This document shows, one piece after another, positions 52,909 through 55,087 of a DNA stretch of 64,000 nucleotides. The notes beneath the pieces were generated by a model that worked only from the letters and a program-made list of their open reading frames with translations, was not told the DNA's origin and did not search any database. The stretch lies in assembly GCF_003018255.1 (NCBI RefSeq), contig NZ_CP027440.1, one strand, 5' to 3'. Position 1 is the first letter of the stretch, and each line of letters starts with the position of its first letter. Made by a program: the position numbers and the translations under genes. Source of the DNA: Escherichia coli (GTDB taxonomy: Bacteria; Pseudomonadota; Gammaproteobacteria; Enterobacterales; Enterobacteriaceae).

Positions 52909-53499
52909 ATGTTACAAAACCCAATTCATCTGCGTCTGGAGCGCCTGGAAAGCTGGCAGCACGTCACTTTTATGGCCTGCTTATGCGAACGTATGTACCC
53001 CAATTACGCCGTATTCTGTCAGCAAACCGGCTTCGGCGATGGGCAGATTTACCGCCGCATTCTCGATCTCATTTGGGAAACGCTGACCGTCAAAGACGCA
53101 AAAGTAAATTTCGACAGCCAACTGGAGAAATTTGAAGAAGCGATTCCTTCAGCCGACGATTTCGATCTGTACGGCGTTTATCCGGCAATCGATGCTTGCG
53201 TGGCGTTAAGTGAACTGGTCCATTCGCGTTTAAGTGGCGAAACGCTCGAACACGCGGTGGAAGTGAGTAAGACTTCCATCACGACCGTGGCGATGCTGGA
53301 AATGACTCAGGCTGGTCGCGAAATGAGCGATGAAGAGCTCAAAGAAAACCCAGCTGTAGAGCAAGAATGGGACATTCAGTGGGAAATATTCCGACTTTTA
53401 GCTGAGTGCGAAGAACGCGATATCGAGCTGATAAAAGGCCTTAGGGCAGACCTGCGTGAGGCGGGTGAGAGCAATATTGGTATAATTTTTCAGCAATAA
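52909..53499 (+). CDS. yjaG: DUF416 family protein YjaG (196 aa)
   Basis: Full ORF MLQNPIHLRLERLESWQHVTFMACLCERMYPNYAVFCQQTGFGDGQIYRRILDLIWE; conserved position between nfi and hupA. Confidence 0.85.
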   Translation: MLQNPIHLRLERLESWQHVTFMACLCERMYPNYAVFCQQTGFGDGQIYRRILDLIWETLTVKDAKVNFDSQLEKFEEAIPSADDFDLYGVYPAIDACVALSELVHSRLSGETLEHAVEVSKTSITTVAMLEMTQAGREMSDEELKENPAVEQEWDIQWEIFRLLAECEERDIELIKGLRADLREAGESNIGIIFQQ

Positions 53500-53685
53500 G
53501 ACCAGAAAACGTGATTTAACGCCTGATTTGTCGTACCTGGAGTCTTCCCTTTCGCCCCCCGTCTGGTCTACATTTGGGGGGCGAAAAAAAGTGGCTATCG
53601 GTGCGTGTATGCAGGAGAGTGCTATTCTGGCATTTCCGTCGCACTCGATGCTTAGCAAGCGATAAACACATTGTAAGGATAACTT

Positions 53686-53958
53686 ATGAACAAGACTCAA
53701 CTGATTGATGTAATTGCAGAGAAAGCAGAACTGTCCAAAACCCAGGCTAAAGCTGCTCTGGAGTCCACTCTGGCTGCAATTACTGAGTCTCTGAAAGAAG
53801 GCGATGCTGTACAACTGGTTGGTTTCGGTACCTTCAAAGTGAACCACCGCGCTGAGCGTACTGGCCGCAACCCGCAGACCGGTAAAGAAATCAAAATTGC
53901 CGCAGCTAACGTACCGGCATTTGTTTCTGGCAAGGCACTGAAAGACGCAGTTAAGTAA
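53686..53958 (+). CDS. hupA: DNA-binding protein HU-alpha (90 aa)
   Basis: [90 protein letters not shown]. Confidence 0.98.
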
Positions 53959-53970
53959 GATTGCGTGGCA

Positions 53971-54666
53971 GTGAACAGTTTTAACGAAGGGGTGGTTTCA
54001 CCCCTTTTGTCTTTCTGGCGTCGATCATTGATGCTGGCTGGCGCTCTGTTTCTCACTGCTTGTAGTCACAACTCTTCACTTCCTCCCTTTACCGCCAGTG
54101 GATTTGCTGAAGACCAGGGCGCGGTACGCATCTGGCGAAAAGACAGCGGCGATAATGTGCATCTTCTTGCCGTGTTTAGCCCGTGGCGCAGTGGCGATAC
54201 GACGACGCGAGAGTATCGCTGGCAGGGCGATAACCTCACGCTCATCAATATCAATGTTTACAGCAAACCCCCGGTGAATATTCGCGCGCGTTTTGACGAT
54301 CGCGGCGATCTGAGCTTTATGCAACGCGAATCCGATGGGGAAAAGCAGCAGCTTTCTAACGACCAAATCGATTTATACCGTTATCGTGCTGATCAGATCC
54401 GCCAGATTAGCGATGCCTTACGTCAGGGGAGAGTCGTGCTGCGCCAGGGGCGCTGGCATGCGATGGAGCAGACTGTGACCACCTGCGAAGGGCAAACCAT
54501 TAAACCTGATTTAGATTCGCAGGCGATAGCGCATATCGAGCGCCGCCAGAGCCGCTCTTCTGTTGATGTCAGCGTGGCATGGCTGGAAGCGCCCGAAGGT
54601 TCGCAATTACTGTTGGTGGCAAACTCTGATTTCTGTCGCTGGCAACCCAACGAGAAAACGTTCTGA
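53971..54666 (+). CDS. yjaH: DUF1481 family putative lipoprotein YjaH (start codon uncertain)
   Basis: ORF 53965..54666; N-terminal region ...SFWRRSLMLAGALFLTACSHN has an n-region/h-region/lipobox (LTAC) signal; candidate starts are GTG 53965/53971/53989, TTG 54006 or ATG 54031. Confidence 0.7.
   Translation: MNSFNEGVVSPLLSFWRRSLMLAGALFLTACSHNSSLPPFTASGFAEDQGAVRIWRKDSGDNVHLLAVFSPWRSGDTTTREYRWQGDNLTLININVYSKPPVNIRARFDDRGDLSFMQRESDGEKQQLSNDQIDLYRYRADQIRQISDALRQGRVVLRQGRWHAMEQTVTTCEGQTIKPDLDSQAIAHIERRQSRSSVDVSVAWLEAPEGSQLLLVANSDFCRWQPNEKTF
53987..54012 (+). terminator. hupA rho-independent terminator
   Basis: AAGGGGTGGTTTCACCCCTTTTGTCTTT hairpin plus T-run about 30 nt after the hupA stop. Confidence 0.75.
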
Positions 54667-54667
54667 T

Positions 54668-55087
54668 TTACCAGTGGTCCATACCCATATGACCGCCACC
54701 ACCGCAGCCGCCGTAACCCATTCCGGTACCGCGCGGAATACCCGCTTCAGCCATCGCAATATCTCGTTTCACCCGTAACTCATCTAACGACTGACGCAAA
54801 TTCTCCATCTCTTTGGCGACCGCGTTAATTTTGCTGCTATCCGGTGGGTTCGCGGCTAACAGGGCATTGTATTCATAACGCTTTGTTACCAGTTGCTGTT
54901 GCAGTGCGCTGCTTTGAGCGTAAAAGTCATTATGGATTTTCTGCCACGCTGTCTGTTGTTCGCTGGTCAAAGGCGCGGCATTTTGCTGCCACATACCGTG
55001 TCCGCCGTGAGCAAATGCCGATGTCGATCCCATCGCCATTGCTGAAAGCGCCATCATTACCAGGGCAATTTTCGTGTTCCGTTTCAT
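54668..55087 (-). CDS. zraP: Zinc resistance-associated periplasmic protein ZraP (139 aa)
   Basis: ORF 54668..55228; internal Met with RBS GGAGGA gives MKRNTKIALVMMALSAMAMGSTSAFAHGGHGMWQQNAAPLTSEQQTAWQKIH; Gly/His-rich C-terminus. Confidence 0.92.
   Translation of the reverse strand: MKRNTKIALVMMALSAMAMGSTSAFAHGGHGMWQQNAAPLTSEQQTAWQKIHNDFYAQSSALQQQLVTKRYEYNALLAANPPDSSKINAVAKEMENLRQSLDELRVKRDIAMAEAGIPRGTGMGYGGCGGGGHMGMDHW

Follow-up and report, generated by a model that had tools for sequence, protein, structure and literature searches.

Where does translation of yjaH begin in Escherichia coli? In the 64,000-nucleotide (nt) stretch of DNA analyzed here (contig NZ_CP027440.1 of assembly GCF_003018255.1; "the window"), this gene directly follows hupA, which encodes HU-alpha, and its longest open reading frame (ORF) in the ORF list has 233 codons, from GTG 53965 to 54666. 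A preliminary description of the sequence had pointed out that the frame opens on a GTG just past the hupA stop codon, that it runs through the hupA terminator with no Shine-Dalgarno (SD) sequence in front, and that the start of yjaH is ambiguous. All of this is borne out: six bases separate the stop from the first GTG, the hairpin and U-tract at 53986-54012 lie within the frame, and the start assigned to E. coli yjaH in public gene calls varies between c1, c3, c15 (P0127) and c23 (P0019), where codon numbers are counted from GTG 53965 (Table 1).

The answer favored here, to which we give a probability of roughly 55% on comparative sequence evidence, is that yjaH is initiated at GTG 53965 (c1) and/or GTG 53971 (c3), by way of terminator read-through and re-initiation coupled to hupA translation. 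The yjaH annotation and the RNA 3' end discussed below are already public; the comparative argument is the part added here.

A working terminator inside the reading frame

The hairpin reads GAAGGGGTG-GTTT-CACCCCTTT, followed by TGTCTTTC, and is the sole terminator-like site in 53400-54800. It has a 9-bp stem with five G-C pairs, a 4-nt loop and the U-tract TTTTGTCTTTC, a folding energy of -13.9 to -14.5 kcal/mol, and it encodes residues E8-G9-V10-V11-S12-P13-L14 of the long ORF. Published Term-seq data (Adams et al., 2021; PMC7815308, supplementary files 1 and 3) include a strong 3' end at K-12 position 4200605, with 102752, 27872, and 14561 reads in three growth conditions; the 61-nt sequence printed with it starts at window position 53960 and places this end at ~54010 (...CACCCCUUUUGU). 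The same source assigns it a Rho score of 0.74 ("No"; insensitive to bicyclomycin, BCM) and an intrinsic-terminator score of 5.76 against a threshold of 3, and classes it as "internal", at +39 in yjaH, with no comment on the site. The hairpin is a working Rho-independent hupA terminator, as this in vivo 3' end attests, and its position inside the annotated yjaH ORF means that the terminated hupA mRNA includes yjaH codons c1-c15, from which initiation at c1 or c3 would give M(AV)NSFNEGVVSPLL. The structure is also conserved: across 35 distinct sequences (~25 genera plus 10 distant lineages) the helix is 96.8% paired, as against 49-82% when the partners are slid, with compensatory changes at two upper stem pairs (13-20 and 14-19) and a loop that varies freely.

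Two further observations concern the same Term-seq data. The figure for K-12 4200605 in supplementary file 3 lacks the drop expected for a strong terminator after a very abundant mRNA and is not interpretable, and a weak 3' end lies within hupA at window ~53794 (K-12 4200389; +108 from the hupA start; 789-1441 reads; PMC7815308). A promoter scan of 53400-54800 found no sigma-70-like site; it missed hupA's own promoter as well and so is uninformative. No RNA family match was obtained in an Rfam scan of the same interval.

All candidate starts lie before, inside or 1-24 nt after the hairpin, so transcription must pass the terminator in every scenario. The preliminary description had offered initiation at the terminator and read-through from hupA as alternatives; since every candidate start needs read-through, the choice falls away.

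Conservation of the upstream start codons

The evidence for the two upstream GTGs comes chiefly from other genomes. The Enterobacteriaceae sample consists of 80 species-level loci from a genome-collection scan, with hupA directly upstream in all of them; the locus search used alignment A3 and yielded Enterobacteriaceae only, with at least 71% identity, alignment A2, of diverse homologues, being too diverse for the purpose. A GTG or ATG is present at c1 and/or c3 in 80 of 80 loci, and the two are never both lost: five loci, of two Salmonella subspecies and of three Leclercia, have no such codon at c1 and five other loci have none at c3, while L008 and L053 carry ATG at c1. The spacer between the hupA stop and c1 measures 5, 6 or 7 nt in 28, 50 and 3 of 81 sequences, respectively. 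Between the hupA stop and the lipobox, indels that are not multiples of three are confined to this spacer; downstream of it, as far as Cys33, there are just two indels, a 3-nt loop insertion (L073) and a 3-nt deletion (L082), and both keep the frame.

By comparison, c15 is TTG in 72 of the 80 and TCG in the other eight, which belong to Kluyvera (five loci) and to the Citrobacter amalonaticus group (three). In several of these eight, L070 and L076 for example, the next start codon stands only four residues before the Cys; they have no other usable start, and an upstream start must therefore function there.

Stop-codon read-through yielding an HU-YjaH fusion was considered and rejected: although the two E. 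coli genes lie in the same frame, other genera have spacers of 5, 6 or 7 nt. The 300-residue HU-YjaH "fusion" in P0002 is a join produced by an internal deletion, and some public yjaH records (among the set P0002, P0005, P0019 and P0127) are fusions or frameshifted chimeras.

More distant relatives extend the pattern. A search of 50%-identity cluster representatives gave 116 matches (E <= 0.001), of which 25 full-length ones were aligned with the window protein (A2). Twelve distant homologues were traced to DNA, with yjaG-hupA-yjaH-purD synteny wherever flanking DNA is present. In the nine lineages in which the genes abut (31-40% protein identity), a start codon in the yjaH frame is found 2-14 nt past the hupA stop and the frame is open through the hairpin, without exception (9/9). 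This codon is ATG in L084 and L087, GTG in L088, L089, L091, L092, L094 and L095, and TTG in L083; L087 has its ATG at +14 and a TTG at +5 after the stop. With the window included, an ORF crosses the hairpin in frame 0 in 10 of 10 lineages, compared with 1 of 20 for the other frames (Fisher p = 4e-7). When each spacer is shuffled, the joint probability comes to 2e-6, and for the five lineages picked blind to the extension (L083, L088, L089, L091 and L092) the product of the per-lineage values is 1.3e-3. L088 has a charged N-terminal region (MKKIIR...) only if translated from the upstream GTG. The preliminary description had regarded the far-upstream GTG with suspicion; the comparative data (80/80 species and 9/9 abutting lineages) favor it instead. 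As a side observation, HU-alpha is 99 residues long in L094:699-998 and L095:96-395, with a Lys/Ala-rich C-terminal extension (...AVKAPKAKK), and in both the yjaH GTG lies 2 nt after the HU-alpha stop.

In the remaining three lineages (L085, L090 and L093), yjaH is separated from the terminator and has its own ATG and a classical signal of 18-21 residues, with a GGAG SD before the ATG in L090. Hairpin-crossing ORFs that start 10-15 nt after the hupA stop are nevertheless found in two of them. In L085, where yjaH starts 117 nt past the hupA stop and a related GTGAAAGTTTTAAAC flank is still there, the upstream ORF (L085:1094-1204) begins with GTG at +10, crosses the hairpin and has its stop overlapping the yjaH ATG, as ATGA. 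In L090 the corresponding ORF (L090:902-949) opens ATG-AAT-TCC (M-N-S; compare M-N-S-F in E. coli) and ends 52 nt before the yjaH ATG.

What is conserved in the E. coli-type leader is largely its nucleotide sequence. Entropy per codon position indicates third-position drift of the ordinary coding type only from ~c24 on, and c1-c16 are conserved at all three codon positions except at c2, c7 and the loop codons c10-c12, which vary non-synonymously. Because of this, the leader before ~c17 is taken to be constrained as nucleic acid rather than as protein, its only coding signatures being the open frame and the start codon; and because nucleotide-level constraint dominates, codon-position periodicity is unusable as a test of coding in c1-c16. 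Within the species, 5420 E. coli genomes are 95.7-100% identical over 141 nt, and in the divergent genomes sampled the differences are almost only at third positions, from c25 on. The 21-nt flank 5' of the hairpin is invariant in the sampled E. coli genomes save for one TTT>TTA change, and shows tighter conservation than third positions in hupA, for which the mean entropy is 0.54 bits. It could serve as a 5' flank of the terminator, as a region for re-initiation or as a binding site in the 3' untranslated region.

One locus in the collection, L013 (CACSKA010000020.1, titled "Chryseobacterium sp. 18061"), has a hupA-yjaH arrangement of the Enterobacteriaceae type, with a YjaH 79% identical to that of E. 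coli and a junction that closely resembles, without matching exactly, the one in Citrobacter sp. 18056, a record of the same project. It is probably a case of contamination or mislabelling.

The lipoprotein signal

YjaH is a predicted lipoprotein and signal peptidase II substrate, with the lipobox-type N-terminus that the preliminary description had proposed. The lipobox LTAC (54052-54063) fits the pattern [LVI][ASTVI][GAS]-C and follows a 12-residue hydrophobic core, and Cys33 is invariant in 26 diverse homologues (alignment A2). Under the legacy PROSITE rule for lipoproteins, the Cys lies at positions 15-35 and a Lys or Arg is among the first seven residues. Signal prediction for each candidate N-terminus had been put forward as a check on the start, and under a coded form of this rule c15 alone has both features, c1, c3 and c10 have the Cys in range and lack the early Lys or Arg, and c22 and c23 lack both. 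Translation from c15 would give MSFWRR...LTAC, a textbook 19-residue signal (MSFWRRSLMLAGALFLTAC), whereas TTG 54028 and ATG 54031 would give uncharged signals of 12 and 11 residues, below the 15-residue minimum. Peptides expected from an upstream start would be (A)VNSFNEGVVSPLLSFWR, MNSFNEGVVSPLLSFWR and AVNSFNEGVVSPLLSFWR; c15 would give MSFWR.

The paired arginines that the preliminary description had treated as a feature of the signal do not hold up as one. At the second of them (c20), 54 of 79 sequences have R and the remainder H (9), G (8), Q (4), S (2), C (1) or one other residue; c19 is C in 3 of 79, and other genera carry RH, RQ, RG, RS or CR. A twin-arginine (Tat) signal, with its conserved RR in an S/T-R-R-x-F-L-K-like motif, was rejected because RR is not conserved.

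Weighing the candidate starts

The most substantial competitor is TTG 54007 (c15), which may be the main E. coli start if the hairpin opens on read-through mRNA and its G-rich 5' arm acts as an SD, the open upstream frame then being tolerated or used only in some lineages; we regard this as possible, though clearly the less probable choice. The E. coli sequence alone in fact favors it, and much of what weighs against c1 and c3 is found here. The only strong SD-like sequence, GAAGGGG, precedes c15 and not c1 or c3: its anti-SD duplex energy of -7.6 kcal/mol is the best of the candidates (c1 -1.4, c3 -1.5, c10 -4.3, c22/c23 -1.5) and compares with -5.9 for the hupA start, while c1 and c3 have no SD sequence, as had been stated for the first GTG. 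An N-terminal region of 18-20 residues with a net charge of +1 and no Lys or Arg in the first seven, as c1 or c3 would produce, contrasts with the c15 product, the sole one to combine an early Lys/Arg with a Cys at 15-35. The main argument for c15 is that the short signals of L085, L090 and L093 start at a position aligned with E. coli c13-c15; the length of the c15 signal also matches the 18-21-residue signals of these three and of P0141, P0158 and P0161 (A2). TTG comes after CCC-CTT in 72/80 species and, among the nine distant lineages whose genes abut, in seven (L083, L084, L087, L088, L089, L092 and L094), and gene callers picked c15 in P0127, P0141 and P0147. On the other hand, the codon is TCG in 8/80 species, TTC in L091 and TTA in L095, with intact genes in all; its SD is at a spacing of 12 nt, and SD and TTG are both paired within a stem of about -14 kcal/mol; and a TTG arises automatically wherever the U-tract is followed by G, as it also is in L085, where it is not a start. 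Initiation at c15 also leaves the 10/10 in-frame upstream starts unexplained.

Other observations also count against c1 and c3. In L088:1001, L091:1001 and L092:1001 an ATG in the hairpin loop has the G-run of the 5' arm at SD distance, and gene callers took it as the yjaH start in all three; in L095 a downstream ATG would give a classical 16-residue signal. Judged from these sequences, the yjaH start clearly moves between lineages. Codons c7 and c10-c12 vary non-synonymously, and the coding signal in c1-c16 is weak. RefSeq annotation (PGAP pipeline) places the start at GTG 53971 (231 residues), both in K-12 and in a genome identical over the stretch, but a pipeline-assigned start is not independent evidence and lends no extra support. 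No start-site or N-terminal data were found: yjaH does not appear in the supplements of TetRP (PMC4909307), TRAINSPOTTER, INRI-seq or TERMITe, and none of the three relevant mentions found by full-text search concerns its start. It is also conceivable, if rather improbable, that c1, c3 and c15 are all used at low efficiency, the mixture being phenotypically silent and the start drifting between lineages. Each of these positions is a start codon in most species, the start varies by lineage (upstream of the hairpin, within its loop, just past it or much farther on), and neither Cys33 nor the mature part varies; the idea overlaps the c1/c3 and c15 readings rather than excluding them. By contrast, ATG 54031, TTG 54028 and GTG 53992 are effectively excluded as the true start. 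ATG is the preferred start codon, one call derived from NCBI (P0019) is at ATG 54031, and GTG 53992 adjoins GAAGG. But signals from the two downstream codons would carry no positive charge ahead of a Cys at residue 11 or 12, and neither codon is conserved as a start, c23 encoding Thr, Ala, Met, Trp, Val or Leu across 79 species. As for c10, it is GTG in only 7/80 species, all Escherichia and Pseudocitrobacter (GCG, GCT or GCC elsewhere), and its SD-like sequence is at spacing 0. The preliminary description had counted ATG 54031 among the candidate starts. Its list gave the correct positions for that codon and for GTG 53971, while its GTG 53989 is a GGG (the GTG is at 53992), its TTG 54006 belongs at 54007, and TTG 54028 was missing.

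From hupA to YjaH: a possible route

For the favored starts at c1 and c3, we infer terminator read-through for transcription of yjaH and hupA-coupled re-initiation for its translation, the latter because stop-start proximity is conserved and there is no SD. In E. coli the two GTGs are 6 and 12 nt from the hupA stop with no independent SD, within the proximity expected of coupled pairs. Most hupA transcripts end at the intrinsic terminator, ~54010 (the step established by Term-seq), and a minority of polymerases would read through to give a hupA-yjaH mRNA, there being no room for a promoter between the genes. Ribosomes coming off hupA, a heavily translated gene, would most probably then re-initiate at GTG 53965 or 53971, melt the hairpin and translate it as part of an unusually long N-region, M(AV)NSFNEGVVSPLLSFWRR, followed by SLMLAGALFL and LTA-C. 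Signal peptidase II would cut before Cys33, discarding all upstream residues, so that c1, c3 and c15 would give the same mature lipoprotein. Removal of the leader would explain why the start is able to shift and why residues encoded by the hairpin can answer to RNA rather than protein constraints.

A weak, SD-less GTG may serve both to keep YjaH low relative to HU and to limit non-stop translation on the abundant terminated hupA mRNAs. In the experiments of Li et al. (2016; PMC4824070), a terminator 28 nt past a stop codon was ~90% efficient and one at 5 nt less than 10%; between the hupA stop and the hairpin there are 27 nt. With a start codon 30 nt in front of it, a terminator lost only ~10% of its efficiency, and a strong start before a terminator halved expression of the upstream gene via non-stop translation (PMC4824070). 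By analogy, these results fit a weak GTG start at yjaH.

A more speculative proposal, which we consider unlikely, is that translation through the terminator after hupA is itself selected, beyond its role in the YjaH N-terminus, and tunes hupA termination and read-through or the stability of the mRNA 3' end. The latter could come about through hairpin melting or through non-stop, transfer-messenger RNA (tmRNA)-mediated decay on terminated transcripts. Hints in this direction are the hairpin-crossing ORFs of L085 and L090 and the 21-nt flank conserved at every codon position. If true, translation through the terminator would link HU-alpha output to translation status.

The locus and its product

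Gene order in the window is yjaG-hupA-yjaH-zraP; features of the junction are collected in Table 1. The DUF1481 match of YjaH covers the full model length, 1-186 (E = 9.4e-73; 244 bits against a cut-off of 25). An AlphaFold2 model (mean predicted local distance difference test score, pLDDT, 93.5; predicted template modeling score, pTM, 0.82) suggests a mostly beta fold with three long helices, in which residues 1-12 would be disordered and residues 13-31 helical. A Foldseek comparison of this model with the PDB gave no significant match (best E = 0.04, template modeling score ~0.2). YjaH has been linked by prediction to core lipopolysaccharide biosynthesis (Hu et al., 2009; PMC2672614).

At its other end yjaH (+ strand, ending at 54666) converges on the zraP ORF (- strand, ending at 54668), one base apart (window 54664-54670). 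The pair is among the overlapping genes listed by ExcludonFinder (PMC12288877), and joint down-regulation of yjaH and zraP is on record in PMC1852313.

Table 1. Features of the hupA-yjaH junction in window coordinates; candidate starts are named by codon number from GTG 53965.
Feature	Positions	Strand	Remarks
hupA (HU-alpha) coding sequence	53686..53958	+	ORF list and RefSeq annotation of identical DNA; stop TAA 53956-53958
Spacer, hupA stop to first in-frame GTG (6 nt)	53959..53964	+	
c1, GTG, start of longest ORF (233 residues)	53965..53967	+	GTG or ATG in 75/80 species loci
Hairpin 5' flank (GTGGCAGTGAACAGTTTTAAC)	53965..53985	+	Conserved at all three codon positions, ~25 genera
c3, GTG, start annotated by RefSeq/PGAP and in K-12 (231 residues)	53971..53973	+	GTG in 75/80 species
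hupA terminator hairpin	53986..54007	+	5' arm 53986-53994, loop 53995-53998, 3' arm 53999-54007
c10, GTG within the 5' arm, unlikely start	53992..53994	+	SD-like GAAGG abuts, spacing 0
Terminator U-tract	54005..54012	+	Mapped RNA 3' end ~54010 (Term-seq, PMC7815308)
c15, TTG, last stem base pair and beginning of U-tract	54007..54009	+	Alternative start, would give MSFWRRSLMLAGALFLTAC
Hydrophobic core SLMLAGALFL and lipobox L-T-A-C	54025..54063	+	Cys33 codon TGT 54061-54063
c22 TTG and c23 ATG, rejected as starts	54028..54033	+	Cys at position 12 or 11, no charged residue
DUF1481 domain of YjaH, residues 44-229	54094..54651	+	Pfam PF07356; coding sequence ends at 54666

Significance and comparison with known systems

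Gene callers disagree on the yjaH start across Enterobacterales, and the comparisons above provide grounds for retaining the long start of RefSeq or, at a minimum, for discarding ATG 54031. The biological consequence is limited, since start choice leaves the mature protein unchanged once the leader is cleaved. The locus is a clean natural case of a working terminator in the first 45 nt of an ORF, and a reminder that the "ORF-internal 3' ends" of Term-seq can simply be the terminator of the upstream gene. A low-abundance envelope protein could in this way be made from a very abundant transcript, with terminator leak and weak re-initiation setting the ratio. In terms of known classes, yjaH is an example of a terminator in the first 100 nt of an ORF and of closely spaced, possibly coupled genes.

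In the trp and pyrBI attenuators, a short translated stretch overlaps a terminator hairpin. At yjaH a putatively translated stretch also lies over the hairpin, and ribosome position could in principle affect its folding; the difference is that this stretch would be the N-terminus of the downstream protein rather than a separate leader. Neither an alternative antiterminator pairing nor regulatory codons were found at yjaH, where no test was aimed at them. Translationally coupled genes, for their part, undergo termination-reinitiation at closely spaced stop and start codons. Here the likeness is in the stop-start distance of 2-14 nt in all abutting lineages, the absence of an SD, the high translation of the upstream gene and, in L085, the ATGA stop/start overlap of the upstream ORF with yjaH. 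Unlike in such operons, a strong terminator stands between the yjaH start and the body of the gene, and coupling at hupA-yjaH is putative. Set against the lipoprotein signals of PROSITE PDOC00013 / PS51257, YjaH is typical in its LTAC lipobox, 12-residue core, preceding Arg and Cys invariant in 26 homologues; from the favored starts it would be atypical in its 18-20-residue N-region, which has no Lys or Arg near the N-terminus and is conserved as nucleotides, not amino acids.

Two published systems come closest. The ORF-internal 3' ends of Adams et al. (2021; PMC7815308) include the yjaH site itself, with an intrinsic score above threshold, but this site is the hupA terminator overlapped by an annotation and not, as in the cases treated there, a regulator acting by premature termination. 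The lambda tR2 terminator with the NinA start (Li et al., 2016; PMC4824070) likewise has a start codon 15-30 nt upstream of a working Rho-independent terminator, ribosomes on terminated RNA that would run off as non-stop complexes, and a stop-to-hairpin distance of ~27-28 nt that keeps termination efficient. In contrast to tR2/NinA, the hupA-yjaH pair is native to the chromosome and has been conserved across an order; its downstream gene encodes a predicted lipoprotein from which the hairpin-encoded residues would be discarded, and its favored start is SD-less and 6-12 nt past the stop.

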